Source: Propionibacteriaceae bacterium (GTDB lineage Bacteria > Actinomycetota > Actinomycetes > Propionibacteriales > Propionibacteriaceae). From it: a DNA stretch of 64,000 bases. Both the position numbers and the translations under genes were made by a program. Under the pieces are notes generated by a model. That model saw nothing but the letters and a program-made list of their open reading frames with translations, ran no database searches and was not told the DNA's origin. The DNA lies in the NCBI GenBank assembly GCA_009779115.1, contig WREX01000001.1, positions 10,878-74,877 of the forward strand. Direction: 5' to 3'. Shown here one piece after another: positions 9,030 through 37,742 of this stretch (position 1 is the first letter of the stretch; every line of letters begins with the position of its first letter).

Positions 9030-9375
9030 GGGACACCGCAGCCTGTGATGGATGGACGCGGGACATTTCTGAGATCATCTATTAATTGATATCTCTACGG
9101 TCGTGTACCCGTACATTTTCCGTTGATTGGTCGATGGGCGGATGGGATGTCTGGAGACGCGGGCCGGTGCTCCCGTCGTACTGGGGCATATCGGCAAATC
9201 AGAAGCGCATCAGGAGGGCGGAGGTATGGCTGGGTTGCGGGCTCAGCTGAGAAATCAGATAGAAATTTTCCTGATGACATGGAGGTTTATCCCTATAGCA
9301 AGGAGCCGGTGTGTGTTGTTATCGTCATCACTACACATGGCATACAGCCTGCTTATTGATCTAAGGAGATTCCCC

Positions 9376-9672
9376 ATGGCAAATGTGAATGTAACCTACG
9401 AAGAGATGACCGCAGCGGCTAACCGGCTGATGACTGGTGAACAAGATATCACTACACAGCTCAACGAGTTGAAGTCGTACATTGGGAACCTGGTCTCGAG
9501 CGGATTCGTGACCGATCAGGCATCGGTCAAGTTCAACGAGACGTACACCAACTTCACCACGAGTGCCACCCAGACCATCGGCGCTCTCGACGGACTGGCC
9601 CAGTACCTCACGCAGGCTGCCCAGGCCATGCAAGAAACTGACTCGCAACTGGCAGCCGGTCTCGGGCAATGA
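9376..9672 (+). CDS. esxA: WXG100/EsxA-like small helical-hairpin protein (type VII secretion substrate/component)
   Basis: 98 aa starting at ATG 9376, 7 nt after AAGGAG. The N-terminus reads MANVNVTYEEMTAAANRL. The C-terminal tail AQAMQETDSQLAAGLGQ parallels the S. aureus EsxA tail. The gene lies in an operon with an FtsK/SpoIIIE ATPase. The central W-x-G is replaced by SGF. Confidence 0.8.
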   Translation: MANVNVTYEEMTAAANRLMTGEQDITTQLNELKSYIGNLVSSGFVTDQASVKFNETYTNFTTSATQTIGALDGLAQYLTQAAQAMQETDSQLAAGLGQ

Positions 9673-13738: not shown

Positions 13739-16700
13739 GTGAAGATTCGGCTCACTCTTGCGACGGATGCGGGGCCGCGTGACATTACGGTGACTGCGGA
13801 TGCCACGGCCACCATCGGGGATGTTGCCTCCACTATCCGGCGCAGTCTCGCTTTTCAGGCGGGGCTGGCGCCGGGGGGTAACCCGGGGCCTCGGATGACT
13901 CTTCAGACGCTGTCGGCCACGGGGTTGGTCGAGCGGACGCTCTTGTCGCAGTCCAGTTTGTCGGACGCTGGTCTGTTGTCGGGGGCGACGATCCAGTTGG
14001 TGGTCTTAGACGCCATGCCCTCCCGGATTGACGACCATGCTGGTGCGGCGGCGTACCTGCATATCCTGTCGGGGCCGCAGACGGGACAGGCACTGCCGCT
14101 GCGCTCAGGACCCAACACCATCGGGCGCAGTCCGGGGGCCGACATCACCATCGACGATCCGTTCGTGTCCAGCATCCATGCCCGGATTGTCGTTTCGGAC
14201 CACATCGAGATCATCGACATGAACTCTGCCAATGGGATCGCCGTGGGGTCGGGTCTCGTGGAGCGGTCCAACCTCGAAGCCCATGACACAGTCACCCTGG
14301 GCGACACGAGCTTCCGGGTGGAACGCAACCCATCCGCGGGAGCTTCCTCGTCATGGACGACTTCGATCGAATTCAACCGTTCGCCTCAGATCTGGCCGGC
14401 TTACGCTGGTCGGACCTTCAAGCTTCCCCAGCCTGCCGGACCCACCAAGCCCGGGAAATTCCCCCTGGTCGCCATGGTTGCCCCGCTGATCATGGGAAGC
14501 GTGATGTACCTGTTCACTCACAACATCATGAGCGTCATTTTCGTGGCTCTCAGTCCGCTCATCGCGATCGGGACATGGCTGGACCGCCGGGTCACCGACC
14601 GCCGGGAGAAGAAACAACAGACCCAGCGGTTCCGGGATGAGATCGAGACCGCGTCAACTCAGATCCATCAGGCCCTGGCTGAAGAACAACAGGCCCGTTG
14701 TCAGGAAATCCCTTCCCTGCAAACCTTAGTTGCTTCGGTCTCACAACTGGCCCCCACCCTGTGGCACCGCCGTCCCGATCAGGAGAATTTCCTGACACTC
14801 ATGACCGGGTACGGCACTGCCGCCTCTCGATCAACCGTCGACTTGCCGCAACGTGGCGAAGGCTCCTCACAACTGTGGCAACTCGCCACCGACCTCCAGG
14901 CCCACTCTCAAACAGTCGACAACGTCCCCATCCTCGTACCACTGCGCACAACCGGAAACCTGGGGATCGCAGGGACTCCGGCCTGGCTCGACTCCGTGGC
15001 CTGCGCCATCGTCGCCCAACTGGCCTGTCTGCATTCTCCCGCTGAAGTCGTCATCACTGGAATCGCTTCCGTGGCCTCCTGCCGGCGGTGGAACTGGTTG
15101 ATGTGGCTGCCTCACGTCGGATCGACCCACTCGCCGATCGAAGGGCCCCACCTCGCCACCTCCCCCGCCGAAGTCTCCTCCCTGGTCTCCCGGCTGGAGG
15201 AGTTGTCCGCCAAACGCCGCGAACTGCGACGCGACGCCGCGACGGCGTTGCCAGCCGTCGTCCTCGTGGTGGAGAACGACGCCCCCATCGAGCGGGGGCG
15301 TCTGGTGTCTTTGGCAGAGAACGGCCCTGACACCGGGATACACCTGATCTGGATGACCCCCGAACAGCACGACCTGCCAGCAGCCTGCCATGCGTTCTTC
15401 GTGGAAAACCACAGTGAGCACACCATGCACATCGGTTTTACCCAGGACAACACCTGGACCCAGATCACCTCCTGCGAGACTCTGACACCGGCCGACGCCT
15501 TGGTTGTGGCCCGCAGGATGTCCCCGATCCACGACGCCGGGGCACCGATGATCGACCAGTCCGATCTGCCGCGCGCCATCTCGTACCTCGCCCTGGCAGG
15601 CCCTGAACTCGCGGATGACCCGTCCTTCACTGTGACCCGGTGGAGAGAGAACGGTTCCATCCTCGGCCCGGGGGAACTCCCGCCTTCCTCGGGGAGCAAC
15701 CTGCGGGGCCTGATCGGGCAAGGCGCCCACGGGGAGTTCGTCCTCGACCTGCGTATCCACGGGCCACACGCCCTGGTCGGTGGCACGACCGGCGCGGGCA
15801 AGTCGGAATTCCTCCAGGCCTGGGTCCTGGGGATGGCCGCCGCCAACAGCCCCAAACGAATCACCTTCTTGTTCGTCGATTACAAGGGCGGGGCGGCCTT
15901 CGCGGACTGCATCAAGCTGCCGCATTGCGTGGGTCTGGTCACCGACCTCAGCGCCCATCTGGTTCGCCGGGCTCTGACTTCACTGAAAGCCGAGTTGCGA
16001 TACAGGGAGCACTTGCTGAACGAGAAGAAAGCCAAAGACCTCGTCTCGCTGGAAGCCACCGGCGATCCGGATTGCCCACCCTCGCTCATCATCATCGTGG
16101 ACGAGTTCGCCGCGCTGGCCAAGGAGATCCCCGAGTTCGTCGACGGTGTCGTCGATGTCGCCCAGAGGGGGCGGTCGCTGGGCATGCACCTGATCATGGC
16201 CACACAGCGCCCGGCCGGGGTCATCCGGGACAACTTGCGTGCCAACACCAATTTGAGGATCGCCTTGCGCATGGCGGATGAGACCGATTCCACAGATGTC
16301 ATCGGTACTCCGCTGGCCTCCAGCTTCGACTCGCGTACCCCTGGCCGGGGAGCAGTACGAACAGGCCCGGGCCGTATCGCACTGTTCCAGTCCGGCTATG
16401 CGGGTGGCCAGACGACCAGCGAACCGGAACCGGCACGCATCGACGTGGAGACTCTGTGTTTCGGGGCCGGGGCGCCATGGGAGATCCCGAGCGACCGAGC
16501 ACCAAAACCTCAGCAATCGGGCACCAAGGACATCAGCCGGATCGTCTCCAGTATCTGCCAGGCCGCTGCGATCACCGCCATACCCGAGCCACGTAAACCC
16601 TGGTTGCCCGACCTCGACTCGGCCTATGACCTCGCGACTCTGTTCGCGGCCAGCACCCAGCGAGCGCGCGATACCTCGGTCACGGCTCTCGCTCTGGGGG

Positions 16701-18160
16701 TCATGGACGATCCGGCCAACCAGGCGCAACATCCCGTCTTCTGGAATCCCGATGAGGGCAATCTGGCCATTTATGGGGCTTCGGGCTCGGGAAAGTCCTC
16801 CACCTTGCGGACGATCGCGGTGTCAGCCAGCGTGTTGGCCCAGGTCGCGCGGGTGGATGTTTATGGCTTTGACGCCGGTTCGTCGGGTCTGGCCATGCTG
16901 GAACCGCTTCCTCATGTCGGCGCCATCATCGGAGCTGACGACCACGAGCGGGTCAACCGCCTGCTGCGCCGGTTGATCCAGACCCTCGACGAACGCGCGG
17001 ACAAGTTCGCTGCCGTTCGAGCAGGCAGTCTGGCCGACTACCGGCGCATCAGCGGTGACCAGACCACCGCCAGGATCCTCCTGCTGATCGACGGATTCGC
17101 CGCGTTCAGGGACATGTACGAGAACACCGTCGGAACGGCCCAACCGTACTCGATGCTAGCCAGGGTCTTGTCGGAAGGGCGTTCGGTGGGAATCCACGTG
17201 GCCCTGACCGCTGAAAGACCGAACGCCATCAACACCGCCCTGGCCGCCAGCATCCAGAAGAGACTGGTCCTCAAGCAGGCGGAGGAAGCGACGTACGTGC
17301 TGCTGAACATCGCCAAGGACATCCTCGACCCATCCAGTCCCCCCGGACGCGGGGTGTTCGCCGAAGACACCAACGAGATCCAGATAGCGGTCCTCAACGC
17401 GACGTCCGACACCGAGAAGCAAGCGGCGTCGATCGACTCGCTGGCCAAGTCGATGACACAGGTCGGCATCGTGGCGGCGCCGGGAGTGGAACGGTTGCCG
17501 AGCCTGATTCCGATCGGCCAGGTCCCGACATCTGTGGGCGGGCAACCAGTGTTGGGGGTCCGGGAAGACACGTTGGAACCGATCGGTTTCAGGGCCGAGG
17601 GAACCTTCGTCGTCGCGGGCATGCCAGGTACAGGGCGCACCACTGCCCTGCGCTATTTGTGCCATGCCCTGCACCGTTGGGATCCGCGGGTCCCCAAGTA
17701 CTACATCGGTCCGAGCCGGTCCGCCCTCCACGCCGAGACCATCTGGGCGGATCACGCGAGAACCGAGGAGGAGATCGCGGAGTTGTGCACCGACATTCTT
17801 CCTTCCCTGGAACGTCCAGCAGCGGGCATACCTGGTGCGGTGCTCGTCTTGGAGGCCTTGACCGAATTCATTGGATCCTCGGTGGAGAATCCCATCGTCG
17901 GTCTCATCCGGGCGGCCCGCCGCAATGGGCATCTGGTCATCGGCGAAACCGAGACTGCTGGTTGGGGATCGGCGTGGCCACTGATCTCTGAGATCAGAAA
18001 CGGACGCCGGGGCATCGTGCTTCAGCCCGACCAGGCGGACGGTGACGGGCTGTTCCGGGTGGCTTTCCCTCGCGTCAAGCGGGCCGACTTCCCCGTGGGA
18101 CGCGGAATCAGCGTGGATGCAGGCAAGTCATGTACGGTCCAGATTCCGCTGCCGGACTGA
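13739..18160 (+). CDS. essC: EssC/YukB-like type VII secretion ATPase: Ubl(beta-grasp)-FHA-2TM-3x FtsK/SpoIIIE
   Basis: GTG start 13739, 8 nt after GGGGAG. Residues 1-90 end in the YukD/EccD-like signature LSDAGLLSGATIQLVV. FHA spans residues 105-195. TM helices are FPLVAMVAPLIMGSVMYLF and IMSVIFVALSPLIAIGTWL. There are three P-loops: GTTGAGKSE, GASGSGKSS and GMPGTGRTT. Confidence 0.9.
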   Translation: MKIRLTLATDAGPRDITVTADATATIGDVASTIRRSLAFQAGLAPGGNPGPRMTLQTLSATGLVERTLLSQSSLSDAGLLSGATIQLVVLDAMPSRIDDHAGAAAYLHILSGPQTGQALPLRSGPNTIGRSPGADITIDDPFVSSIHARIVVSDHIEIIDMNSANGIAVGSGLVERSNLEAHDTVTLGDTSFRVERNPSAGASSSWTTSIEFNRSPQIWPAYAGRTFKLPQPAGPTKPGKFPLVAMVAPLIMGSVMYLFTHNIMSVIFVALSPLIAIGTWLDRRVTDRREKKQQTQRFRDEIETASTQIHQALAEEQQARCQEIPSLQTLVASVSQLAPTLWHRRPDQENFLTLMTGYGTAASRSTVDLPQRGEGSSQLWQLATDLQAHSQTVDNVPILVPLRTTGNLGIAGTPAWLDSVACAIVAQLACLHSPAEVVITGIASVASCRRWNWLMWLPHVGSTHSPIEGPHLATSPAEVSSLVSRLEELSAKRRELRRDAATALPAVVLVVENDAPIERGRLVSLAENGPDTGIHLIWMTPEQHDLPAACHAFFVENHSEHTMHIGFTQDNTWTQITSCETLTPADALVVARRMSPIHDAGAPMIDQSDLPRAISYLALAGPELADDPSFTVTRWRENGSILGPGELPPSSGSNLRGLIGQGAHGEFVLDLRIHGPHALVGGTTGAGKSEFLQAWVLGMAAANSPKRITFLFVDYKGGAAFADCIKLPHCVGLVTDLSAHLVRRALTSLKAELRYREHLLNEKKAKDLVSLEATGDPDCPPSLIIIVDEFAALAKEIPEFVDGVVDVAQRGRSLGMHLIMATQRPAGVIRDNLRANTNLRIALRMADETDSTDVIGTPLASSFDSRTPGRGAVRTGPGRIALFQSGYAGGQTTSEPEPARIDVETLCFGAGAPWEIPSDRAPKPQQSGTKDISRIVSSICQAAAITAIPEPRKPWLPDLDSAYDLATLFAASTQRARDTSVTALALGVMDDPANQAQHPVFWNPDEGNLAIYGASGSGKSSTLRTIAVSASVLAQVARVDVYGFDAGSSGLAMLEPLPHVGAIIGADDHERVNRLLRRLIQTLDERADKFAAVRAGSLADYRRISGDQTTARILLLIDGFAAFRDMYENTVGTAQPYSMLARVLSEGRSVGIHVALTAERPNAINTALAASIQKRLVLKQAEEATYVLLNIAKDILDPSSPPGRGVFAEDTNEIQIAVLNATSDTEKQAASIDSLAKSMTQVGIVAAPGVERLPSLIPIGQVPTSVGGQPVLGVREDTLEPIGFRAEGTFVVAGMPGTGRTTALRYLCHALHRWDPRVPKYYIGPSRSALHAETIWADHARTEEEIAELCTDILPSLERPAAGIPGAVLVLEALTEFIGSSVENPIVGLIRAARRNGHLVIGETETAGWGSAWPLISEIRNGRRGIVLQPDQADGDGLFRVAFPRVKRADFPVGRGISVDAGKSCTVQIPLPD
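14051..14324 (+). other. FHA domain of the EssC-like ATPase, with a canonical phosphothreonine-contact set
   Basis: YLHILSGPQTGQALPLRSGPNTIGRSPGADITIDDPFVSSIHARIVV...NSANGIAV...TLGDTSFRV. The G-R, S-x-x-H and N-G positions are all retained. Confidence 0.8.
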
Positions 18161-18316
18161 GGAGACCTGGCGCCAGCCAGCCGTCACCGGGACTCAGGGT
18201 ACGTCCAAGGGGCACTTCGCCAGAACCTAGAGCCAGGGCATCTTCGTAGTGACGCATCCGTTCAGGCCACGCCCCGCGTACTGCTTGTCACGGCGGAAAT
18301 CGGTACTCGTCGTTGG

Positions 18317-19036
18317 TTACTCGTCGTCATCGTGAACGGCGCCAGGGTCGTCCAGCAGGGTGAGGTCTTCCGCGGTCACGAAACCGGTCGACACCGCCCA
18401 CTCGACCAGGCGCGAGCGGCGGCCCGAGGCGTGTTGGCGCACCCCTCCGCGCATCCCGTCCACACCGAGGTTGTCCAATTTCATACAGATATTGTCGATT
18501 TTCTTTTCGTAGCGTTTGACGGACCAGCCGATCCGGTCGGCGGCGTCGGCATTCGAGGGGACATGGATCATCCCGAAGCCTTCACGCCTGAGCGCGGGCT
18601 CAGCCAGGGCCACGACTGCCAGCCGCTGGGCCATGGTCCAGCCCACACCGTCGATCGTGGTCCCCGATTCCGCCGTGGCAGTCCCTATCCCCTCCTGCCA
18701 CAAGGGGATTTCATTCACCAGATGGATTTGGTACGTGCATGGACCGGCGGTGAACACCACGTCGACAGAACCGAACACCAGGGGCAGCCGGGTGGAGGGG
18801 CCCAGCCATGCCTGCAGGCTCGTCTTGCGGTCATAGACGGTGGCCGCCGTCGTGCCGCCGATGTTGACCAGCCACCACAGGTCGTACTCGTACACCAACC
18901 GCAGGAAACGACGATGCAGGTACGGGTTGGCGTCGAGAACCATGTCTGCCTCGCGGCCGATGTCGAACACCTGGCCCGGGCTCACCACGTGCGTCCGTCC
19001 CTCGAACTCGATACGAACAGTCGACTCCTCTGCCAT
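18317..19036 (-). CDS. FHA-like N-terminal domain / C-terminal helix-turn-helix putative regulator
   Basis: Start at ATG 19036 after GGGGAGGA (ORF track extends to 19276). The N-terminus reads VRIEFEGRTHVVSPGQVFDIGREADMVL...LHRRFLRL...NIGG. The C-terminus ADRIGWSVKRYEKKIDNICMKLDNLG...RRSRLVEWAVSTGFVTAEDL resembles a LuxR/GerE-type HTH. Confidence 0.6.
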   Translation of the reverse strand: MAEESTVRIEFEGRTHVVSPGQVFDIGREADMVLDANPYLHRRFLRLVYEYDLWWLVNIGGTTAATVYDRKTSLQAWLGPSTRLPLVFGSVDVVFTAGPCTYQIHLVNEIPLWQEGIGTATAESGTTIDGVGWTMAQRLAVVALAEPALRREGFGMIHVPSNADAADRIGWSVKRYEKKIDNICMKLDNLGVDGMRGGVRQHASGRRSRLVEWAVSTGFVTAEDLTLLDDPGAVHDDDE

Positions 19037-19061
19037 GCGTCCTCCCCTTCGTGTATGGATA

Positions 19062-20762
19062 TCAGGCGACAGCACAACGCCTCGTTGTGTCCGATGGTAC
19101 CCCGTGACGGACGACTTGCACGTCAAGACAAACGTAACTGTCCTGCTCAGGCCAAGCCACCGTGACCGTCGTCTGATCCGTGATTTTAGCGGTGACATCG
19201 GTCGACCCGTCGACGGTGTAACGGTATTGATCACCCTCCTGGGGGTCCGGATTGACCCAGGTGAAGACTGCATCACCCGAAGAATCGTGGGTGCCGGTCA
19301 GATCGGTGACTGCTTGGGGGATGGTGGAATTCACGATGGGATTGTGGGGTGTGGCGGAGGTGGTGGTGGCATCGGGAGGAGGGGGCACGTCAGGAGCGCC
19401 GTGGAGAACCACGACGACCACGGTCACGGCAACAGCGATGATGACGACCGCGAGGGCGACCACACCCCATCGGCGTTTCCCGGGTGACTTAGGCGACCGT
19501 GGCTGAGCAGTCACCGATTCCGCAGGCTCAGGGTGGTCCAGAGTCACCGGGCGTACTTGGGTGGGATCGAGCAACCCGCCGAAGTCCACAGCGGTCGTCG
19601 GATAGGCCGGGTGGGCCATCTTGGAAGTGTTTTTCCTGCCAGGAACCTCGGAAATGGGCAATGAGCCCATACTTGCTAGTGGCAGGTCCTTGACTGGGGC
19701 ATGAGCCACGTCGGTGGCCTGTGCCACCCCCGGGAGGTGGGCCGGGTCGGGTTCCAAGGTGGGATCGATGGTCTGCTCAATGTGGGGGTCGATCACAGTC
19801 AATGGGCGCAGACTCGTCCCCGCTGTCTCGTCATCGCCGATCCGGTCATCGCCGTCAGAATCCTCCAGGATGTCCATCTGGGTCGCCGGCAGGTGGAGTT
19901 CGGCTTCGACCTCGCGCAGGGCCATGCCGAAGGCCTTCATGGAGGGATACCGGGCCTGCGGCGACTTGGCCATGGCAGTGGACAAGACCTGATCCAAGGA
20001 GGCGGGAGCGTCAACCCGGCCGAGCGGGCGGTAGGGAGCATTGCGGATCCTGTCGATCATCACATGTTGCCGATTGTCTCCACCGGGAATCTCGAAGGGG
20101 GGCCTGCCCGTCAGCAAAGCGTACATGGTGGCTGCCAGGCTCCAGATGTCCGATTGGCGGGTCGGACGAGGATTCTTGTCGAAGGACTCGGGCGGGCTCC
20201 ACGGGATCGACATCCCCTGCGCGCCTCCCCTGGAAGCCTCGACATCCGTCATGGCGATACCGAAGTCGCCGAGGACCGGGCGGGAGAAGCGGTCCATCAG
20301 AATATTGGCTGGCTTGACATCCCGGTGCAAAATCCCTTGTGAATCAGTCCCCAGGCCCGGACTCGTGTAGCGATGGGCCGACTCCAAGGCTCCAGCCAAC
20401 TGGATGCCTATCTTGAGGACATTGGCCAAGGACCACCCAGTCTTGCGCAGTCCCTGGGACAGGGCGGCACCCGGGTAGTACTCCATCACCAAGTACGGGC
20501 GCCCGTCCATCGCGACCCCGGAGGAAAAGACTGTCACGATGTTCTGGTGTCCGGACAACCCGGCCATGGCGTCGGCCTCTTTGTTGAGCCGGGCGGCTGC
20601 TTGGCTTCCCGCCATGTCGGCGTGCAAGACCTTCACGGCGACCTGGCGGTGCGGAGTGTCTTGGGAATACAAGTACACGTCGGCGAACCCACCGTGTCCG
20701 AGATCGCGCAGGTAGGAGAAACCGGGAATCTGCGGTGGGGCCTCACGCCGGGTCGAACTCAT
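19062..20762 (-). CDS. Hanks-type Ser/Thr protein kinase, single TM, FN3-like extracellular domain
   Basis: Kinase motifs are LGHGGFADVY, VAVKVL, HRDVKPANIL, DFGIA, SPPE and DIWSLA. A Pro-rich linker follows, then the TM helix WGVVALAVVIIAVAVTVVVVVL. The ectodomain is about 110 aa (AVTDLTGT..AVFTWVNPDP..GDQYRY). Confidence 0.92.
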   Translation of the reverse strand: MSSTRREAPPQIPGFSYLRDLGHGGFADVYLYSQDTPHRQVAVKVLHADMAGSQAAARLNKEADAMAGLSGHQNIVTVFSSGVAMDGRPYLVMEYYPGAALSQGLRKTGWSLANVLKIGIQLAGALESAHRYTSPGLGTDSQGILHRDVKPANILMDRFSRPVLGDFGIAMTDVEASRGGAQGMSIPWSPPESFDKNPRPTRQSDIWSLAATMYALLTGRPPFEIPGGDNRQHVMIDRIRNAPYRPLGRVDAPASLDQVLSTAMAKSPQARYPSMKAFGMALREVEAELHLPATQMDILEDSDGDDRIGDDETAGTSLRPLTVIDPHIEQTIDPTLEPDPAHLPGVAQATDVAHAPVKDLPLASMGSLPISEVPGRKNTSKMAHPAYPTTAVDFGGLLDPTQVRPVTLDHPEPAESVTAQPRSPKSPGKRRWGVVALAVVIIAVAVTVVVVVLHGAPDVPPPPDATTTSATPHNPIVNSTIPQAVTDLTGTHDSSGDAVFTWVNPDPQEGDQYRYTVDGSTDVTAKITDQTTVTVAWPEQDSYVCLDVQVVRHGVPSDTTRRCAVA

Positions 20763-22282
20763 GCCAACTCCTCGATCGTGACCATCAGGTCGTGGCTGAG
20801 GAAGTAGACGTCCTTTTCTTGGGCGATCTCCTGCTGCCCGTCAGTCAGACGGCGGTCGGGTTGCCCGACCCGGCGCAGAATGGTCCCGTTGCGGCCCAGA
20901 CTGGTCACCAGGACACTCCAATCCTCCAGGTCGACCCTCAGGTGGGTCGCCGACACATGGGGATCCTCGACGGTGATCAGGTTGGGGATGTCCAGGTTGG
21001 AGAACCGGGTCGCTTCGGGGCGGCGGCCGATGACGAAGGGATGGTCGATGGGCCTCACATCTCCCCCCGGCAGTTTCAGCCTTCCCAGGATCGGTCGCGG
21101 CACTTGAGTGGCATCGACATCCAGCGGGGAGTCACAGAACCGGCAGGTGACTCGCCGGGTCGAGTTGGCGCTGTGACACCGTGGGCAGATCCGCGCCGAG
21201 ACCATGGGGCCCGCCGGGGACGGAACTGGGCTGGCGGCCACCTGGTCGCCGACCCAGGTGTGGGTGGTCATTCCGTCGTGATCAGTGGAGGGACCTTCGC
21301 CAAAACCCGGTGCCGACATCACCGTCATGCCATCGTGGTCATCCTCGTCCTCGTACGGTTGGTTCGTCCTCGCCAGCCCTGGGTCGTACGCCGGTCCGCC
21401 AGGTGGCGGGGACATGGTCAGTTGAGTCTCGGCGGCGCTTTGAACAGGAGCAGTGGAAGCGGGATTCCCCAGGTCAGGATTCCCAGGGTCGAGATTCTCC
21501 GCTGCCTGATTCGCTGCTGCTGGGCCCTCGAAGAAGGACCGGTACAACGTGGTGTAGTGCAGGTCTTGCTCGTCACGGGATTGGACAGGGGCAGGTGGGG
21601 TACCCGACGGCGGAGTCACTGGTTCACCCTGCGGCGAGCCTGGGTGGGGAGGAGCAGCGGGACCATGGGCCGGGGGCGGGACAGCCGGTACTGGCGACAC
21701 CGGGGCCGCATGACCGGCTGGATTGGACTGCTCACCCTGGGCAGCGACCGCCGCAGGTGAAGGGGTGTCTGGCACATTGAGGGCCGCCAGTCCAGTGCCT
21801 GGGGTACTGGTCACAACACTGTGGACAGGGGCGGAGTCTGACCAGTCCCCTCCCCCCGGGAGCATGTCGATGCAAGAGACTGGCACGATGCCGTCGTTGA
21901 GCACCCAGGAGGGCAGGCCGCCGTCTTCGTCGGCAGCCACACTGAGCTGACTGGGGGCAAGAATCCTGTCTTCTTTCCAGGTCAGGACGTCAGCGCCGCT
22001 GATCAATACTGGTCCCCCAGTGGTCATCGCGCGTACTGACAATGGACCGCGTACTGCGATGTGGATGCCGCCGGATTCGGGCACGGCGATGGCGAAGGCG
22101 GGCAAGGCCGTCAGGTCCGCCGCCGCGTCGCCGACCATCCGCTGGAGGAGCTGGGCGAAACCGCTTCCACTGCGCAGGGCTGCCCATACCGACGTCACCT
22201 TCTCGCCGGTTGAGTCCGGTGCGAGGATGACACAGCCAGATCCCGACACCAGGCCGTACCATTGTCCCGTCGCGTACCTCAT
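20759..22282 (-). CDS. FHA domain protein with zinc ribbon and long Pro-rich linker
   Basis: Start at ATG 22282 overlaps the PP2C stop (ATGA); the ORF track extends to 22534. Zinc ribbon: CPRCHSANSTRRVTCRFC. C-terminal FHA: VIGRRPEA...SATHLRV...GRNGTIL. Confidence 0.8.
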   Translation of the reverse strand: MRYATGQWYGLVSGSGCVILAPDSTGEKVTSVWAALRSGSGFAQLLQRMVGDAAADLTALPAFAIAVPESGGIHIAVRGPLSVRAMTTGGPVLISGADVLTWKEDRILAPSQLSVAADEDGGLPSWVLNDGIVPVSCIDMLPGGGDWSDSAPVHSVVTSTPGTGLAALNVPDTPSPAAVAAQGEQSNPAGHAAPVSPVPAVPPPAHGPAAPPHPGSPQGEPVTPPSGTPPAPVQSRDEQDLHYTTLYRSFFEGPAAANQAAENLDPGNPDLGNPASTAPVQSAAETQLTMSPPPGGPAYDPGLARTNQPYEDEDDHDGMTVMSAPGFGEGPSTDHDGMTTHTWVGDQVAASPVPSPAGPMVSARICPRCHSANSTRRVTCRFCDSPLDVDATQVPRPILGRLKLPGGDVRPIDHPFVIGRRPEATRFSNLDIPNLITVEDPHVSATHLRVDLEDWSVLVTSLGRNGTILRRVGQPDRRLTDGQQEIAQEKDVYFLSHDLMVTIEELA

Positions 22283-23091
22283 GATTGGTCTTTCTCGCCG
22301 GACTGGCCGCCGTCTGCCAGGCCCATCGTGTCGTCGACAGTGGCCCCGCCCGGATCGCCCGCGAAATCCTCCACGTCCACGATAACGACCGACACGTTGT
22401 CGCGCCCGCCCGCGGCCAGGGCGGCGCTGACCAGTTGGGTGACAACCTCGTGGGCCGGGAGCGGTTGGGTGACGATGCGGGCGATCTCGGTCTCGGTCAG
22501 CTCTGTGGTCAGCCCGTCCGAACAGATCATCCACCGCCCAGGACCCATGACCGGAATGAGCCAGTAGTCGGGCCGCTCGACGGTGCGCGCTCCGAGGACC
22601 CGCGTGATGACATTGCGCCGGGAGTACGTCCGGGCTGAAACGGCGTCCAAACGTCCCGCCTCGATCATCTCCTGGGCTTCGGAGTGGTCCACGGACACCT
22701 GGTTGACCGTGTCACCGACGACACGGTAGGTGCGCGAATCCCCCAGATTGATCACCAGCCAGTACGGCCAGCCGTCTTGTCGCACCAGCACGATGCCGCT
22801 GACCGTCGTACCGGCCGCCCTCCACGTGTGCGAAGCCTCCAACGAGTCGATGCTCCAGCGGGCCCGGGTGAGGGCGTCACGGACATCTTCGACGCTGGGG
22901 TCGGCGCCCAGTTTGCTCATCTCATCGATCACGATGGCACTGGCACGGTCACCGGCGTCGTGGCCGCCCATGCCGTCGGCCACGATGAACACAGGGCGTT
23001 CGGCCAAGACGGCGTCCTCGTTGAAGGCACGGCGGTGGCCGATGTCGGTCGCGGAGGCGACACTGAGTTTCACATCATCCAGGACAGTCAT
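22279..23091 (-). CDS. PP2C-family Ser/Thr protein phosphatase
   Basis: ATDIGHRRAFNEDA, VADGMGGHDAG, a GDSR block and a C-terminal DNVSVV. These match PPM/PP2C motifs. Confidence 0.92.
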   Translation of the reverse strand: MTVLDDVKLSVASATDIGHRRAFNEDAVLAERPVFIVADGMGGHDAGDRASAIVIDEMSKLGADPSVEDVRDALTRARWSIDSLEASHTWRAAGTTVSGIVLVRQDGWPYWLVINLGDSRTYRVVGDTVNQVSVDHSEAQEMIEAGRLDAVSARTYSRRNVITRVLGARTVERPDYWLIPVMGPGRWMICSDGLTTELTETEIARIVTQPLPAHEVVTQLVSAALAAGGRDNVSVVIVDVEDFAGDPGGATVDDTMGLADGGQSGEKDQS

Positions 23092-23804
23092 GACTCTCGG
23101 GCCCTCTCAACATGGAATCGTCTGCGTCCCAGGATCAGGGTGTCACCGATCGACAGTCGGACCGGTTCTCCGGGAACCAGGTGGAGGGGCAGGCTCCCCA
23201 TCCGTACAAGATCCGTACCATTGGTGGATCCTCGGTCCTTGAGCCATAACCCCTGGTCATCAAGGCCATACTCGGCGTGGGTCTTCGACAAGGACCGCTC
23301 CGGGTCGTCCACTGCCGTACACACCACGGACGGGTCTGGCGACTCCGGGTTGCGTCCGACCAGGCCGTGGCTGCTCACGTGGATGCGTTGGCCGGTGTCG
23401 AACACCAAATCGATGCTGAGGCTGTCCACGGCAGGGGTGGCCATCGGGGGCCCCGCCACGGCTGGCCGGTCCATCACTGGTCCCGGACGAGGCCCGGTCC
23501 ATCCGCCCGGGGCCAAGACCGTGGAGGCCACGGCGGCCACCGCCGCAGTGGGAGGTGGGCAGACAGCGGTCAGCTGAGTTTGTCCTGTGCGCACGGCAGG
23601 CTCGGGTCGCGGTGTCGACGCCGGTTGAGCCGCCTGGGAAGGGTTGCCATCAGCCTGCCCGTGGTCGAAGAACTCCGGGGTCCTGGTCCCCGGGACATCC
23701 CAGATCAGGAAACCAGCTGGATTCGAGGGGACGGACCGCCCGCAAGCAGGGCAGGCGACGGCTGACTCGGGGATCTGAGCCCCACACTGAGGACATGATC
23801 GCAT
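23088..23804 (-). CDS. FHA domain protein with N-terminal zinc ribbon
   Basis: Start at ATG 23804, 2 nt below the upstream stop; the ORF track extends to 23942. Zinc ribbon: CPQCGAQIPESAVACPACG. A Pro-rich linker follows. FHA: LVGRNPES...SKTHAEY...STNGTDL. Confidence 0.8.
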   Translation of the reverse strand: MRSCPQCGAQIPESAVACPACGRSVPSNPAGFLIWDVPGTRTPEFFDHGQADGNPSQAAQPASTPRPEPAVRTGQTQLTAVCPPPTAAVAAVASTVLAPGGWTGPRPGPVMDRPAVAGPPMATPAVDSLSIDLVFDTGQRIHVSSHGLVGRNPESPDPSVVCTAVDDPERSLSKTHAEYGLDDQGLWLKDRGSTNGTDLVRMGSLPLHLVPGEPVRLSIGDTLILGRRRFHVERARES

Positions 23805-23806
23805 TC

Positions 23807-26101
23807 CTACGGCCCTCCCGGGATCGTGACGGTCGGTTTGGCGTGCCGACGCAAGGATGTCACTGCGATCCTGGCCCGGAATCGCCGCCACCAGGATCGT
23901 GTGTGCCCGAGGTCCGCGGCCGCCAAGACAGCCTGCTGCCACAGAGCATCGGCCTGGGCTGGAGTCGGGGGCGAGGCGCTGAACGTGCCAAGATCGGCTG
24001 CATCGGCCAGCGCATTCATCGTACCCAGAGCAAAAACGCTGGACACGATCGTGGCCGCTTGTCGCCGAGTGGCGGAAGCCGGGATCACAGTGCCGAGGTC
24101 CGCCGCCCGGTCGAGGATCTCCTGCCAGGCGAAGGCCATTCTCCAGGGCAAGCGTGCGTCGGTTCTGCGCCGAGTTCTGCGGGCTGACTTCCAGACGATG
24201 ATGACCACCATCGGCCCCACAATCACGATGAGAGGCACGGCGCCCATCCCGACCAAGGCCAGTACAGTACGCCAGGCGATCGAGTGGTGCTGTTCCTTGT
24301 TTTGGTCCTTGTTCTGCGAGTCAGGATCGGCTTGCAGAGACTGGTCGTCGTGCGAGGTCGTCGATGGCGGAGGCTGGAGGATCTGCGGTTTGGGCTTGGC
24401 TTTCGACTGATTCAACTGTTGCTGGGGTTGTTGGTTCTTGTCGGGTGTGGGGAAAAAGGCGTACCAGCCGACTCCGTCGAAGGGAACCTCCACCCAGGCA
24501 TGGGCATCCGACCCCTTGACCGACCAGGTTGTGCCGTCGAGCGTGGAATCGGCATCGGTTCTGAATCCCATGACCACACGGGCCGGGATCCCGATCTTCA
24601 TCAGCATCAGGGCAGCAGCAACGGCGTATTGCTCATCGTCGCCAACCATCCTGGAGGGATCGGCCAAGAGCTTGTCGATCCGGTACGACGAATGCCCGGG
24701 CAGGGAAGGATCCTCGGATTCCAGGCCGTGGGAGAAGTACCCGGTCGTCCGCAGCGTGCCGACGATGTCATTGACCTGGTCCAGGGCCGAGGTGTCCTCG
24801 CCTGTCCACTGGACCGCCAGCGCCCCGACAGAATCGGGAACCCATTGCGGGGCTGGCAAGGTCACTCGGGCGACAGGTGTTGCCGCAGTGGGAGTCGCCG
24901 TGGGGATCAGAGACTGGACCGTGTACGACGTCCCCGCCGACAGCCCCGTCGGGTCGATCAGGCAGTCCGACTGCGGGTTGTAATACAGCGATGAAGACAG
25001 ATCCTCGGCTTGAGGTCCTGTGAAGGTGAGGCTCCGGTTCTGGCTGAGCGACGGAACCCACACTCCCGAGTAGTCATCGTCCGTGACCGTGACCGTCACC
25101 GGCTGCCCGGGGGAGGGTGCGGGTGAATCGCCCAGATCCGGTCCGACCCGGTCGTAGCGGGAGGCTCCGGTCGCCTCGCCAACGTTGTAGACCATGCCAT
25201 CGTAGGTGTCCATCACGGCCAGGCGCAGCAAGTCATCCTGGCTCCATCCATCCACAGTGAACAAGACATCGTCCTTCTGCGTGTCGACCAGGTTCCGGAA
25301 GGAGATCAAGGGGCTGGCGAAAGCCGTCAGGTCCAGAGGCGGGACAACATGCTTGCGCAAGACATCCCGGTCGATTCCCGTGCAGAGCGCCGGTCCCGCC
25401 ACACCGGCCACCAGAGTGGCCACGCCGAACAGGACCCCAGCCTTGGCCAGCCAGGCTCCCCCGGCCAGGGACGATGGGCGGCGAGTTGCGGACATGGCGC
25501 CGGTGGCCTGGTGGTTACGCCAGACAATCCAGCAGACGCTGACCAGCGACAGGACCACCGACTGGACGGTGGGGAAGAAAGCGTTCGACGTACCCAACAG
25601 GATCACCAGCGCGGTCAGGGCCGCCACCGGGATCAGCGCGACTCCGGGGTGGCGAGCCCGCCAGGCTGCTGAGAACGCGGCCACCGAGGCCACCAGTGTG
25701 AGGATGAAGGGCACGAGCATGAAGGGATAGAAGCTGGCTACCGGAGTTGTGGCGGTGACGAACTGCCGCCACACCGACACTGAGGAGAAAACCAGCGTCT
25801 TCAGACACGCGAGGTTGGGAGCCAGCTGGGCGATTCCCCGGCTCCACAGAGCGGCAGCCGTGCCAAAGACGAAGTACGACACCACTGTCGCCACGGCCAT
25901 CGTGAAGGTCGACCACCGTCGCCAGGCCCCCAGCCAGGCGGCCCCAGCTCCGACGAGGATGCCGAAGACCACTGGCCGGATGAAGCCCGGCCCACCGAAC
26001 ACTGGCCAGAACCCCGCCAGCCCCGCCGCCAGCAAGACCATCACCGCAACGGCGTCGACCGCTGCCGGCCATGTCAGGGTTCGGGGCTTCACTGCTGGCA
26101 T
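23807..26101 (-). CDS. transglutaminase-like domain polytopic membrane protein (TgpA-like)
   Basis: Six or more N-terminal TM helices. The TGase core reads GDDEQYAVAAALMLMKIGIPARVVMGF...DAHAWVEV...FFPTPD, followed by a C-terminal TM and tail. The position normally holding the catalytic Cys is Asp. Confidence 0.8.
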   Translation of the reverse strand: MPAVKPRTLTWPAAVDAVAVMVLLAAGLAGFWPVFGGPGFIRPVVFGILVGAGAAWLGAWRRWSTFTMAVATVVSYFVFGTAAALWSRGIAQLAPNLACLKTLVFSSVSVWRQFVTATTPVASFYPFMLVPFILTLVASVAAFSAAWRARHPGVALIPVAALTALVILLGTSNAFFPTVQSVVLSLVSVCWIVWRNHQATGAMSATRRPSSLAGGAWLAKAGVLFGVATLVAGVAGPALCTGIDRDVLRKHVVPPLDLTAFASPLISFRNLVDTQKDDVLFTVDGWSQDDLLRLAVMDTYDGMVYNVGEATGASRYDRVGPDLGDSPAPSPGQPVTVTVTDDDYSGVWVPSLSQNRSLTFTGPQAEDLSSSLYYNPQSDCLIDPTGLSAGTSYTVQSLIPTATPTAATPVARVTLPAPQWVPDSVGALAVQWTGEDTSALDQVNDIVGTLRTTGYFSHGLESEDPSLPGHSSYRIDKLLADPSRMVGDDEQYAVAAALMLMKIGIPARVVMGFRTDADSTLDGTTWSVKGSDAHAWVEVPFDGVGWYAFFPTPDKNQQPQQQLNQSKAKPKPQILQPPPSTTSHDDQSLQADPDSQNKDQNKEQHHSIAWRTVLALVGMGAVPLIVIVGPMVVIIVWKSARRTRRRTDARLPWRMAFAWQEILDRAADLGTVIPASATRRQAATIVSSVFALGTMNALADAADLGTFSASPPTPAQADALWQQAVLAAADLGHTRSWWRRFRARIAVTSLRRHAKPTVTIPGGP

Positions 26102-27486
26102 CAGACCTCCAGGGACCGCATCATCCGTGGCAGCTGGTTCAAGCTGCCCAGAGTTAACACCGCAGAGTCGCCCAAGCTGCTGCGGCCCATGGGAACGGCG
26201 ATCTCACACCGCAGAACGACGGTCAGCACATCGACACCGAACCGCGAGCAGGCGGCGTGCAACCGGCCCGGTTCGACCTGTGTTCCCGTGATCACCATGG
26301 CCGCCGACGCGTCTGGAGAGGCGTTCGCGGCTTCGAGTGCAACCGCTTCCACCGGCGGGATCCGGTCAGCCAACTCCAACCGTGAGAAACCATCCAGCAT
26401 GATCATCCCGGTGACGGTGTTCAGAAAGCCTCCCGGAACGGCAATGGTCAGGTCCTTCTCCTGAAGGATCGCCTGCTGGCCCAGGGACGCGGCGACGGAC
26501 ACGGCCAACTCGAAATCCGCCGCGCTCGCATAATCCGATGAACAACCGGACAAGCAGACGACCAGGTGGGAACGACGGGTTTCCTCGAACTGGCGCACGA
26601 CCAGCCTGCCCGTGCGGGCGGAGGTCTTCCAGTGGACGTGTCTCAGGTCGTCGCCCACCACGTAATCTCGCAGCGCGTGGAAGGCGATGTCCGAAGAGGA
26701 CAAGGTGTCGGTCGGCCGGCCCTCCAAATCCCTCAGGAACCCAGCCGACGAGTCCGCCAAGGAGACGGTCCTCGGGTGGATGAACAACTCCTGGACCTCA
26801 GTCCACTTCTGCTCCCGCCTCAACAGCCCCAGCCCGTCGCCGCGCGAGGATCGTACTGGCCCGAGAGGGACGACCGCCCGCTGGCTGGTGTCCACCCCGA
26901 AGGACTCGTAGAAAGAATCGTGGCCGGTCAGGTGGCCGACATCGAAGACCCGTGTGGCCTGACCGATGGGTACGAGGAAAACCGAGGGGCGCAAGCGTCT
27001 GGCCGATGTGTTGCGCACCGTGAGCCCGCCGTGGGCGTCGTCGCCCACCCGGACCCTCAACCGGGTCATGTCGACCTGGACCGAATACGAGACCCTGCCG
27101 AGGACGAAGTAGACCGAACCCACCACCAGGACGAGCAAGAACAAGCCAATGACCAAGAATTCATGCCAGTGCAGCCAGTCCCCCACCGCCAGGGCTGCCA
27201 CGACCACCGCGATCACCACCCAGCCGATGGGCTGGATGATCCCCAGAATGGGCCGGGCCTCCTCGACCGCCGGGCGGAGGTACCGGCCCACAGTCTGTGC
27301 GCCACGGCGTACTGGAGACCAGAGGTGTGGCGCTTGGTCCAGCACCGGTCGACGATCTAACGCCAGTCTGGAGGGCGCCCTCGACCAGGGCGCTGCATCG
27401 CTGGCGTGGGCAGCCTTCACCCGGCCGGCCGGTCGCGGCGACCGGCCCCGGCCCGGCACTGCCCTGGTGGGAACGGGAGGAGTCAT
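26101..27486 (-). CDS. DUF58 (vWA-like) domain protein, MoxR partner
   Basis: Two TM helices near the N-terminus. The DUF58 hallmark ALRDYVVGDDLRHVHWKTSARTGRLVVRQFE is present. A 4-nt overlap with MoxR and a 1-nt overlap with the TGase gene. Confidence 0.85.
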   Translation of the reverse strand: MTPPVPTRAVPGRGRSPRPAGRVKAAHASDAAPWSRAPSRLALDRRPVLDQAPHLWSPVRRGAQTVGRYLRPAVEEARPILGIIQPIGWVVIAVVVAALAVGDWLHWHEFLVIGLFLLVLVVGSVYFVLGRVSYSVQVDMTRLRVRVGDDAHGGLTVRNTSARRLRPSVFLVPIGQATRVFDVGHLTGHDSFYESFGVDTSQRAVVPLGPVRSSRGDGLGLLRREQKWTEVQELFIHPRTVSLADSSAGFLRDLEGRPTDTLSSSDIAFHALRDYVVGDDLRHVHWKTSARTGRLVVRQFEETRRSHLVVCLSGCSSDYASAADFELAVSVAASLGQQAILQEKDLTIAVPGGFLNTVTGMIMLDGFSRLELADRIPPVEAVALEAANASPDASAAMVITGTQVEPGRLHAACSRFGVDVLTVVLRCEIAVPMGRSSLGDSAVLTLGSLNQLPRMMRSLEV

Positions 27487-28454
27487 GGGGTGATCCCGGT
27501 GGTGGGAACGGGCACTTCGGCGAGGACCCGGTCGATGACCAAAGCGGCAGTGACACCGGCGAATTCAGCCTCGGGGTCGAGGATGAGCCGGTGGTCCCAC
27601 ACCTGATGCGCGAGGTCTTTCACATCGTCGCAGGTGACATAAGGCCGCCCTTGGGAGGCCGCCCACACTTTCGCCGTCCTGGTCATGGCCAGAGCCCCTC
27701 GTACTGAGACTGCGATGCGGGTCTGCTCACTCGCGCGGGTCTGCTGGGCCACCGTCGCGATATAGGTCAGTACGGCATCCGCGACGTGCACTGTTGTGGC
27801 GAGATCGGCCATTTCCGCCACTTTGTCGGCGGGGATGACCGGGGAGACCAGAGAGGAACGGTTCTTCACCGCCGCTCCCGACAGGATTTCGACGGTATGG
27901 GCCATGTCCGGGTAGCCGATGGAGGTCTTCATCAAGAAACGGTCTAACTGCGCTTCGGGGAGGCGGTAAGTCCCGGCTTGCTCGATCGGGTTCTGGGTCG
28001 CGATGACCATGAAAGGGCGGCCCACCTTCCGCGTCACGCCATCGACGGTGACCTGGCCCTCCTCCATGACTTCCAGAAGAGCCGACTGGGTCTTGGGCGA
28101 CGCGCGGTTGATCTCATCGGCCAGCAGAATGTGGGTGAACACCGGCCCGGGCAGGAATTCGAAGTCGCCTTTGCGCTGGTCGAAGACTGTCACGCCTGTG
28201 ACATCGGTCGGCAACAGGTCGGGGGTGAATTGGATACGCTTGCTCGTCCCAGCGACGGTGGCCGCCAGCGCCCGGGCCAATTGAGTCTTGCCGGTGCCCG
28301 GGGCATCCTCCAGGAGGATGTGGCCCTCGGCCAGCAGGGCGGTGACCGCGTAGCGTACTTCGCGGTCCTTGCCCAACACGGCCTTGCCAACGTTGGCGAC
28401 GATTTGGGTGACAGCCTGGGCGAACCACTGGGCTTCATCGGGAGTCATGGTCAT
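27483..28454 (-). CDS. MoxR-family AAA+ ATPase
   Basis: Walker A: LLEDAPGTGKTQLA. Walker B: ILLADEINRASPKTQSALLEVMEE. The overall size of 323 aa fits the family. Confidence 0.95.
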   Translation of the reverse strand: MTMTPDEAQWFAQAVTQIVANVGKAVLGKDREVRYAVTALLAEGHILLEDAPGTGKTQLARALAATVAGTSKRIQFTPDLLPTDVTGVTVFDQRKGDFEFLPGPVFTHILLADEINRASPKTQSALLEVMEEGQVTVDGVTRKVGRPFMVIATQNPIEQAGTYRLPEAQLDRFLMKTSIGYPDMAHTVEILSGAAVKNRSSLVSPVIPADKVAEMADLATTVHVADAVLTYIATVAQQTRASEQTRIAVSVRGALAMTRTAKVWAASQGRPYVTCDDVKDLAHQVWDHRLILDPEAEFAGVTAALVIDRVLAEVPVPTTGITP

Positions 28455-28510
28455 GGGTCACGATGTCCTTTCCGGGAGATATCGGCGAGGAGTCGCCAGG
28501 GTTGCCGTTG

Positions 28511-37706: not shown

Positions 37707-37742
37707 GACGACTCCTTTTCACTGCCACAAAGCCGGCAGGCT

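Follow-up and report, generated by a model that had tools for sequence, protein, structure and literature searches.

A probable Esr-type kinase, phosphatase and FHA operon converging on a type VII secretion operon in a Propionibacteriaceae genome

Gene content of the convergent esr and esx operons

The 64,000-nucleotide stretch analysed here, hereafter the window, comes from a Propionibacteriaceae genome (contig WREX01000001.1 of assembly GCA_009779115.1) and has a GC content of ~62–64%. It carries a minus-strand run of genes for a Hanks-type Ser/Thr kinase, a PP2C phosphatase and FHA-domain proteins that converges on the gene for an EssC-like ATPase of a type VII secretion system (T7SS). With a probability of about 0.8, we read five of these genes as the phosphorelay half of a threat-sensing operon coupled to Esx/type VII secretion and of the type known as Esr, the "epibiont sensing and response" pathway of Schaalia odontolytica (Wang et al., bioRxiv 2026-09-09, PMC13622651). 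The window is a Propionibacteriaceae member of this already described kind, and the idea of control by phosphorylation had been published before.

The minus-strand run is a single translationally coupled set of nine genes extending from 34612 to 18317. In order, they encode a surface protein, a MoxR ATPase, a DUF58 protein, a transglutaminase, a protein with a zinc ribbon, an intrinsically disordered region (IDR) and an FHA domain (ZnR-FHA), a PP2C phosphatase, an EsrG-like protein, a membrane kinase and a protein combining an FHA with a helix-turn-helix (HTH) domain (Table 1). The junctions are overlaps of 4 nt or 1 nt or gaps of 2, 25 and 56 nt: the DUF58 gene overlaps its neighbours with both its start and its stop codon, the transglutaminase gene stops 2 nt upstream of the ZnR-FHA gene at 23804, the PP2C, EsrG-like and kinase genes each overlap the preceding gene by 4 nt, and the 25-nt gap between the kinase and FHA-HTH genes holds a GGGGAGG ribosome-binding site. 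The five genes from 23804 to 18317 form the 3' half of this operon (18317–34612). Independent gene calls on a public contig contain the same five proteins of, in operon order, 238, 270, 507, 566 and 239 residues, and the last of them is 100% identical to NCBI FWF25_00115. On the plus strand, the esx operon, made up of a WXG100 gene, four more conserved genes and essC, runs towards them, and no terminator-like site was found in the convergent spacer between the two (18161–18316).

An earlier note on this DNA had described a five-gene minus-strand run converging on an essC-like gene, and its order, strand and spacing stand. The two details to be corrected are the spacer, which is as short as the note held but measures 156 and not 157 nt (EssC ends at 18160), and the extent of the run, whose five genes are real but whose operon continues upstream to 34612.

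Table 1. Features of the esr and esx operons and their surroundings in the window
Feature	Position	Strand	Basis or remark
esx box 1, ATGGAGGTTTATCCCTAT	9279..9296		Consensus variant; 88 nt upstream of the WXG100 start
WXG100 (EsxA-like) protein, 95 aa, first gene of the esx operon	9385..9672	+	Pfam WXG100, E=4e-17
Two esx-linked genes, translationally coupled	9669-10268 and ~10265-11146	+	No Pfam family
Candidate Esx substrate, helical WXG100-like N-terminus and repeats	11148..12146	+	Weak WXG100_2 match
Protein with T7SS_signal-like (LXG-like) helical N-terminus, candidate substrate or membrane component	12329..13720	+
EssC/EccC-type T7SS ATPase	13739..18160	+	Pfam FtsK_SpoIIIE 1.8e-51, FHA 4.5e-11
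Convergent spacer, EssC stop to FHA-HTH gene stop	18161..18316		156 nt
FHA and LuxR/GerE-type HTH protein, candidate transcription factor	18317..19036	-	AF2 model and fold search
Membrane Hanks Ser/Thr kinase (EsrE/TsdD-like)	19062..20762	-	Pfam Pkinase 9.6e-33
EsrG-like output protein	20759..22282	-	N-terminal domain, Pro-rich disordered region, zinc ribbon, canonical FHA
PP2C/PPM Ser/Thr phosphatase (EsrF-like)	22279..23091	-	Pfam PP2C/PP2C_2
Zinc ribbon-disordered region-FHA protein	23088..23804	-	Pfam Zn_Ribbon_1 and FHA
Polytopic membrane transglutaminase-like protein (EsrD-like)	23807..26101	-	Pfam TgpA_N 4.4e-19, Transglut_core 6.5e-15
DUF58 (vWA-like) protein, 2 transmembrane segments	26101..27486	-	Pfam DUF58 5e-11
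MoxR-family AAA+ ATPase	27483..28454	-	Pfam AAA_3 8e-62
EsrA-like surface sensor, 2033 aa	28511..34612	-	Pfam Big_9 x8, Cadherin_5, fn3
esx box 2, ATGGGGATTAATCCCTAT	34722..34739		109 nt upstream of the EsrA start codon

The catalytic and phosphothreonine-binding residues of the module are strongly conserved. The kinase consists of a cytoplasmic kinase domain, one transmembrane (TM) segment (~aa 428–453) and an extracytoplasmic tail of ~110 residues, and its residues G22 and G24 of the G-loop, K44, E62, H146-R147-D148, N153, D166-F167-G168, E192 and R271 each occur in no fewer than 61 of the 62 orthologues, and most occur in every one. Similarly, the metal-binding motifs DGMGG, GDSR, DG and DN of the phosphatase are invariant in an eight-sequence alignment. 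Three of the four FHA domains have the full G-R / S-x-x-H / N-G set: S173/H176 and N195-G196 of the ZnR-FHA protein are found in 59/59 orthologues, G419-R420, S444/H447 and N465-G466 of the EsrG-like protein in 45/45, and G129-R130, S144-x-x-H147 and N165-G166 of EssC are invariant in 12. The claims that the kinase has all catalytic motifs, that the PPM motifs of the phosphatase are intact and that three of four FHA domains, including that of EssC, are canonical thus hold, the FHA motifs in every orthologue examined. From its motifs, the ZnR-FHA protein is predicted to be a second canonical phosphothreonine reader or a substrate, and the FHA domain of EssC may also read phosphothreonine. The N-terminal domain of the EsrG-like protein (aa 1–140) is kept in eight loci and belongs to no family in Pfam, NCBIfam or PADLOC; the PADLOC output consisted of generic kinase matches only.

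Two FHA proteins, a PP2C phosphatase and a Hanks kinase are also the domain kinds of the housekeeping cell-wall and division cluster FhaA/FhaB-PstP-PknA/PknB, and the best NCBIfam matches of our kinase and phosphatase are indeed PknB_PASTA_kin and Stp1_PP2C (the latter 1.8e-48). Both scores are far under their cut-offs, 171 vs 450 bits and 165 vs 230 bits, respectively; PASTA domains, RodA and PbpA are all absent, just a single kinase is present, and the neighbours are MoxR, DUF58, transglutaminase and EssC. This gene content refutes a division cluster, which we regard as having practically no chance of being correct.

The protein encoded by the last gene, labelled "FHA-like/HTH" in the earlier note, matches no Pfam, NCBIfam (including GerE) or PADLOC family, and no meaningful match came from a search of PDB sequences with its family profile. 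The label agrees with both a predicted structure and a fold search. The AlphaFold model has a mean confidence (pLDDT) of 82.7 and two domains, of which the N-terminal one is an FHA fold with Rv1747 FHA-1 as the best match (6ccd; TM-score 0.73, E=1.7e-6), followed by GarA and OdhI. Modelled alone (pLDDT 81), the C-terminal domain superposes on the DNA-binding domains of LiaR, VraR, GerE, DegU, DosR and NarL with TM-scores of 0.68–0.79, root-mean-square deviations of 2.0–3.0 Å and probabilities of 0.57–0.99, LiaR being the best (TM-score 0.79, 2.1 Å). We refer to this candidate transcription factor as FHA-LuxR. Its FHA domain keeps G27-R28 and N58 and has H41-R42-R43-F44 instead of S-x-x-H. The linker between the two domains is variable except for G124-x-T126-T127, and T127 (~18656–18658) is found in 120/120 non-redundant homologues; it may be phosphorylated in a manner analogous to the GarA/OdhI ETTS switch.

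The upstream half of the operon has the components of a surface sensor. The EsrA-like protein starts with a signal peptide or anchor (hydrophobic N-terminus, aa 10–28) and an N-terminal beta-propeller, continues with Big_9, cadherin-like and FN3 repeats, and no C-terminal TM segment was found in its 2033 residues. A profile of aa 30–400 matches the NHL propellers of the PknD sensor, Pizza and teneurin (E=1e-11 to 1e-5). The MoxR protein additionally matches the Pfam family bpMoxR ("MoxR-vWA-beta-propeller ternary systems") with 35 bits, over the cut-off, and the DUF58 protein next to it contains what we take to be a vWA-like domain.

On the opposite strand, EssC consists of an N-terminal domain of ~100 residues, the canonical FHA domain, two TM segments and FtsK/SpoIIIE P-loop domains, and its best NCBIfam match is T7_EssCb_Firm (553 bits, under the cut-off). 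Residues 1–100 (13739–14040) form a conserved domain ahead of the FHA. The matches of its profile are weak (E 0.1–1), and five of the nine are to ubiquitin-like proteins (redesigned ubiquitin, ISG15, SAMP1); judged from this similarity, the domain may be a fused YukD-like (ubiquitin-like) domain. The WXG100 protein that opens the esx operon is 67% identical in the closest related locus, L002, and is present in 15 loci. The two coupled genes behind it are kept in the same order in L002 at 50–53% identity, and the second of them has homologues also in L031, L003 and L059. In the following gene, a candidate for an Esx substrate, a tandem repeat (11490–12019; period 18 nt, 29.4 copies) encodes (PPAGPY)n, and the N-terminus of the protein is kept in eight loci beside WXG100 genes. 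The combination of a helical N-terminus with a long disordered region resembles AesB of S. odontolytica (PMC13622651); none of the six frames of the window contains the AesB motif GYVNP. The last protein before EssC matches Pfam T7SS_signal under the cut-off (E=1.3e-4), has two hydrophobic segments at aa 282–327, and its homologues adjoin WXG100 in L002, L028, L031 and L057.

Conservation of the link to EssC and genomic setting

The FHA-LuxR gene, situated between those of the kinase and EssC, was for this reason chosen as the anchor for comparing loci. Relatives of the gene occur in at least 586 species-representative genome loci, and we compared the best 80 of these, with 10-kb flanks, by tblastn with all window proteins. 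Sixty loci were informative and contained the kinase. EssC adjoins the module in 40 of them: it is directly downstream on the same strand in 38, with a median gap of ~53 nt, convergent as in the window in one (L002), and a few kb off in another, whereas the other 20 have no EssC within 10 kb. The earlier note had named the conservation of this adjacency in related genomes as a check of its proposal, and the result is in its favour. The upstream part of the operon is conserved as well: of the 61 loci whose upstream sequence reaches 9 kb or more, 44 have the genes for DUF58, transglutaminase, PP2C and kinase in the same order. Across all loci sampled, well over a hundred have the FHA-LuxR gene flanked by the kinase on one side and by EssC or EsrA on the other.

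The hosts with a link to EssC include Microbacteriaceae, Brachybacterium, Promicromonospora, Isoptericola, Luteimicrobium, Propionibacteriaceae and Bifidobacteriaceae. Since they span several families of Actinomycetales (as defined in GTDB) and Propionibacteriales and the identity of EssC between them is just 41–49%, the Esr-EssC linkage is old. The link of the module to type VII secretion is not due to chance. In comparison with the common arrangement, the convergent layout of the window is derived. The order of the esx genes also differs, with WXG100 first and EssC last in the window and L002 and EssC first elsewhere, and this difference rules out a simple inversion as the origin of the convergent layout.

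The whole esx/esr block of ~25 kb (~9.3–34.7 kb) sits among housekeeping genes. Its left flank contains, within 1635–9029, peptidoglycan-hydrolase genes of the NlpC/P60 and M23 peptidase types and, beyond these, the domain types of menaquinone synthesis (MenD, MenC, MenA and MenE; TPP enzyme, enolase-like, UbiA and AMP-binding). The right flank (35829–40294) encodes a CAAX protease and proteins of sugar-phosphate metabolism, a PGI-like protein and a phosphomannomutase. The borders of the block showed neither tRNA nor mobility genes.

A palindrome upstream of esx and esr genes

In an alignment of the regions upstream of their WXG100 genes, the window and L002 share a conserved block, the core of which is an 18-bp palindrome with the consensus ATGGGGA-N4-TCCCCAT. 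The 64-kb window contains two copies of this "esx box," one before the WXG100 gene and one before the EsrA gene. The first is followed by the -10-like hexamer TATCGT at 9320–9325, 23 nt past the box, and the second has TAGCAT at 34692–34697 on the minus strand. Within the 80 genome loci (1.41 Mb), we found 57 boxes with at most one substitution, 38 of them exact, in comparison with 0–1 in 20 shuffles. These boxes are located just past the EssC stop, with further sites downstream, and the gene after the box is almost always of WXG100 type, ~90–110 residues long and from one of several subfamilies.

An independent set of 58 metagenome loci (L082–L139) was picked solely by a profile of the EsrA N-terminus, at 27–33% identity. 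Exactly one box is present in 36 of them (0–2 anywhere in shuffles), and it always lies 172–252 nt before the start of the EsrA match, that is, ~80–150 nt before the start codon. The gene directly upstream of EsrA is an FHA-LuxR homologue in 50 of the 58, mostly preceded by the kinase and then, where the flank reaches that far, by an EsrG-like protein. In the genome loci, too, the FHA-LuxR gene mostly lies immediately before a box or EssC. The common box suggests that the esr and esx genes form a joint regulon.

In all, 84 non-redundant boxes were found (shuffles 0–2), and in 67 of these a TAnnnT hexamer starts 22–24 nt past the box, compared with 0–1 in the mirror control. This spacing places the box at approximately -52 to -35, with its centre at ~-43.5/-44.5, and it is thus a candidate class II activator site that would take the place of the -35 element. 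The lux and tra boxes have this same class II position replacing the -35, the classic geometry of dimeric LuxR-type activators. We rejected the possibility that the palindrome acts as an RNA hairpin: both arms are conserved in sequence while the loop is variable, and the distance to the -10 hexamer is fixed. Single and double substitutions are never compensatory, which argues for a DNA operator rather than an RNA stem. An Rfam scan gave only a spurious snoRNA match near the box and no family at the gathering threshold in the window.

As the transcriptional output of the Esr pathway we tentatively propose, at slightly less than even odds, the FHA-LuxR protein: phosphorylated T127 or phospho-EsrG would bring about an FHA-mediated dimer that binds the box and activates the esx and esr regulon. 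Dimerisation, which a palindromic site requires, could come from phosphothreonine–FHA pairing. Alternatively, the box could be bound by the zinc-ribbon FHA proteins or by an unlinked regulator, FHA-LuxR having other targets. The authors of the Schaalia study proposed zinc-finger variants of EsrG as direct modulators of transcription (PMC13622651). In addition, the HTH fold match of FHA-LuxR has weak E-values, and its binding to the box is a prediction. We nevertheless hold this alternative to be rather unlikely, as in all three gene arrangements no conserved gene is closer to the box than that of FHA-LuxR. Moreover, a perfect 18-bp palindrome centred at ~-43.5 fits dimeric LuxR-type activators, and single zinc ribbons of ~20 residues are not known as sequence-specific readers of palindromes. 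The box motif has no mention in the text of the preprint (PMC13622651), nor did a full-text literature search find it, and neither the FHA-LuxR protein nor the box is mentioned in the text of PMC11217815 and PMC13622651.

Our data include several variants of these arrangements. In Agromyces (L045, L060, L067, L070), the operon has the alternative order PP2C, EsrG, kinase, FHA-LuxR, EsrA, which is seen also in the metagenome loci L083–L138, where the box separates the FHA-LuxR and EsrA genes. Of the Agromyces loci, three have two tandem EsrA paralogues and the fourth, L060, is too short downstream to show a second; in L067 a box with one mismatch is found 94 nt before the second EsrA. The Microbacterium loci L049, L064, L066, L075, L018 and L022 contain FHA-LuxR paralogues with no adjacent kinase but with same-strand EssC and/or WXG100 genes at most 10 kb upstream, L018 also having a box; because of these, the FHA-LuxR family seems to be tied to esx genes even in the absence of the Esr kinase. 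In the window itself, a hydrophobic open reading frame of 79 residues (MTRGLPLLLFIACTIY..., 34849–35088, plus strand) is divergent from the EsrA gene, and as the box is 109 nt from both start codons, the EsrA promoter region may be bidirectional.

Relation to described systems and proposed function

The system closest in content is the Esr pathway. In S. odontolytica, EsrA is a secreted Ig-repeat protein with a beta-propeller that is held at the surface by the transglutaminase EsrD, and it is required for threonine phosphorylation of the FHA protein EsrG1 at T152, within a disordered region, and for a transcriptional response that includes induction of Esx. Esr1 acts transcriptionally, and the Esx-linked paralogous Esr2 is needed post-translationally for secretion of AesA/AesB. 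The preprint reports EsrG-EccC fusions and leaves open how EsrG phosphorylation is passed on to transcription (PMC13622651). The operon in our window has the same set of proteins, a propeller/Ig EsrA, MoxR, vWA, EsrD, EsrE, EsrF and EsrG, as judged by domain content, and the domain order of its EsrG-like protein fits the "PPL1-IDR-(Zn)-FHA" described for EsrG (PMC13622651). The two agree in taxonomic range, Actinomycetales (GTDB) and Propionibacteriales, and in the genomic link to esx genes, which are adjacent to 40% of the 3502 Esr pathways there (PMC13622651), while EssC adjoins 40 of 60 modules here. On the other hand, EssC converges on the operon here and is integrated in the operon there, the propeller is of the NHL/PknD-sensor type and not the WD40 described there, and our locus has two extra FHA genes, ZnR-FHA and FHA-LuxR. 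Here EssC also has a canonical FHA domain of its own, which possibly corresponds to the EsrG-EccC fusion of the preprint.

Parts of the same machinery were earlier described as T7SS variants. In their work on T7SSd and T7SSe, Garrett, Palmer et al. (Microlife 2024, PMC11217815) predicted control of novel T7SS variants by threonine phosphorylation, with an analogy to the type VI secretion system (T6SS), and raised the membrane kinases TscD/TsdD as possible active counterparts of the T7SSb pseudokinase EssB, with no sequence similarity found between them. T7SSd and our locus have in common their occurrence in Actinomycetota, an EssC-like ATPase nearer to the Firmicute EssC and with an N-terminal FHA domain of phosphothreonine consensus (TsdC), a WXG100 protein (TsdA), a membrane kinase whose N-terminal domain is cytoplasmic (TsdD) and a giant, Sec-signal-bearing protein of Ig repeats (TsdI); the PPM phosphatase and FHA proteins are shared with T7SSe. 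There are also differences: the kinase and the giant Ig protein were classed there as core components of the T7SS, the MoxR, DUF58 and transglutaminase genes were not described, no TsdH-like (single-TM) gene was identified in the window, and TsdI has a C-terminal TM segment whereas none was found in the giant protein here. No ubiquitin-like protein was reported there, whereas our EssC has a possible one; a fused YukD-like domain on EssC, if true, would explain why no separate ubiquitin-like protein was found in T7SSd (Garrett et al.). We consider that TsdD and TsdI are probably the Esr kinase and EsrA. The earlier note knew of no such circuit described for type VII systems, but one was predicted in 2024 (PMC11217815) and tested in 2026 (PMC13622651).

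A third description is the PFNA operon of Bifidobacterium (pkb2-fn3-aaa_atp-duf58-tgm-prpC-hyp-fha), which is co-transcribed in B. longum and has been read as a sensor of host cytokines, with no mention of a link to type VII secretion (PMC8430577). The window operon has the same eight kinds of genes, though the kinase is first there and the eighth gene here, and the host here belongs to Propionibacteriaceae; in its defined sense the PFNA operon is thus not what the window has, although the kind of system is shared. One could see our operon as a PFNA-type sensor of host signals, in which the FN3 protein would bind cytokines as in Bifidobacterium and the adjacency to EssC would be incidental, as the domain set is the same down to PrpC, the hypothetical protein and the FHA protein (PMC8430577), and EssC is on the opposite strand in the window. 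We find this very improbable: EssC is kept adjacent in 40 of the 60 loci and is usually co-directional, the promoter box is common to WXG100 genes, EssC follows the FHA-LuxR gene, and a box is present, in a Bifidobacteriaceae metagenome-assembled genome (L005) as well, and the hosts are mostly actinomycetes from soil or the environment that have no animal host. The domain content suggests that Esr, PFNA and a part of T7SSd belong to one kind of system; neither PFNA nor T7SSd is cited in PMC13622651.

Two further comparisons concern parts of the locus. The MoxR-vWA-beta-propeller ternary conflict systems (Kaur, Burroughs, Iyer & Aravind 2020, as cited in PMC13622651) have in common with the window the bpMoxR match, the vWA-like DUF58, a beta-propeller sensor and kinase/FHA partners, and differ in that the propeller here is on a giant extracellular Ig-repeat protein; according to PMC13622651, Esr clusters were not detected in that study. 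For FHA-LuxR, an architectural precedent is EspM (Rv3863/MMAR_5438), an FHA and HTH transcription factor that is encoded beside the ESX-1 locus and represses whiB6 (PMC7002343). Both proteins have an N-terminal FHA and a C-terminal HTH domain and are encoded at the edge of a type VII locus, and EspM regulates T7SS-associated genes. EspM is longer, 363 residues, and its HTH is not shown to be GerE-like; our 239-residue protein does not match NCBIfam EspM and has no detectable homology to it.

The analogy behind the earlier note was the T6SS, where a Hanks kinase, a PP2C phosphatase and an FHA reader control a secretion machine (PpkA-PppA-Fha1 in the H1-T6SS of P. aeruginosa; TssL-Fha in Agrobacterium). 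The likeness is one of analogy only, as the secretion system is another one, PpkA has its own periplasmic domain, and the T6SS pathway is without MoxR, vWA, transglutaminase, a surface Ig sensor or an FHA domain on the ATPase. The window contains no T6SS genes (TagH model 27.5 bits vs a cut-off of 120). Following this model strictly, the five-gene module alone would act on EssC as a purely post-translational gate, with no sensor and no transcription arm. This is consistent with the invariant phosphothreonine-binding motif of the EssC FHA domain and with the post-translational action of the Schaalia Esr2 on AesA/AesB export. However, the module is translationally coupled to the transglutaminase, DUF58, MoxR and EsrA genes and includes the FHA-HTH protein, a conserved promoter box connects esr and esx transcription, and the Schaalia Esr1 acts at the transcriptional level, all of which leave a purely post-translational gate improbable. 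The broader proposal of the earlier note, that the T7SS is controlled by phosphorylation, is supported by the conserved adjacency and the shared promoter palindrome and is also backed by the Schaalia system of the same domain set, with its EsrG1 phosphorylation and Esr2-dependent secretion (PMC13622651).

In the Esr-type reading that we prefer, the secreted or anchored propeller/Ig-repeat EsrA-like protein would sense something at the cell surface, where the transglutaminase probably fixes it, and the MoxR ATPase and DUF58/vWA protein would relay the signal to the membrane kinase. The kinase would then phosphorylate threonines in the disordered regions of the FHA proteins, with the PP2C phosphatase resetting the state, and the phosphothreonines would be read by the three canonical FHA domains of ZnR-FHA, the EsrG-like protein and the EssC N-terminus, possibly also by the divergent FHA domain of the last gene. 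The output is probably transcriptional as well as post-translational: an FHA-LuxR dimer would bind the esx box at the promoters of Esx substrate genes and of the esr sensor operon, and FHA–phosphothreonine contacts on EssC would tune secretion. We infer, in this scheme, which FHA domain reads which phosphosite, the binding of the box by FHA-LuxR and the role of the EssC FHA domain as a gate.

Several observations weigh against this reading or parts of it. The coupling of Esr and EssC is frequent but, given the 20 of 60 loci with no adjacent EssC, not obligate, and in the window EssC is convergent and not co-transcribed with the esr operon. The host is a metagenome-assembled genome known here from sequence alone. 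The N-terminal profile of the EsrG-like protein had a probability of 0.06 when compared with a PP2C profile by hhalign and gave 0 matches against the PDB; in the light of this lack of PP2C or PDB similarity, the label "pseudophosphatase" for the domain is unconfirmed. The FHA domain of FHA-LuxR is without the canonical Ser and His, and the Foldseek E-values for its predicted HTH domain are weak (0.3–2.8) despite good TM-scores and probabilities. Its standing as the best candidate for binding the box comes from position, palindromic symmetry and gene linkage, and the actual binder could instead be an unlinked regulator or one of the zinc-ribbon FHA proteins.

Outside the mycobacteria, Esx/type VII systems are widespread in actinomycetes, and what they do and how they are controlled had been obscure until very recently. 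The window provides a clean Propionibacteriaceae case of Esr-Esx coupling, and the comparative data independently confirm that the kinase/PP2C/FHA module travels with EssC across families. If the proposed role of FHA-LuxR is true, the esr sensor operon would activate itself, giving a positive feedback. The box and the candidate regulator FHA-LuxR are leads beyond the text of the 2024 and 2026 papers, and the box together with the adjacent conserved protein offers a testable handle on how the phospho-signal may be turned into transcription.

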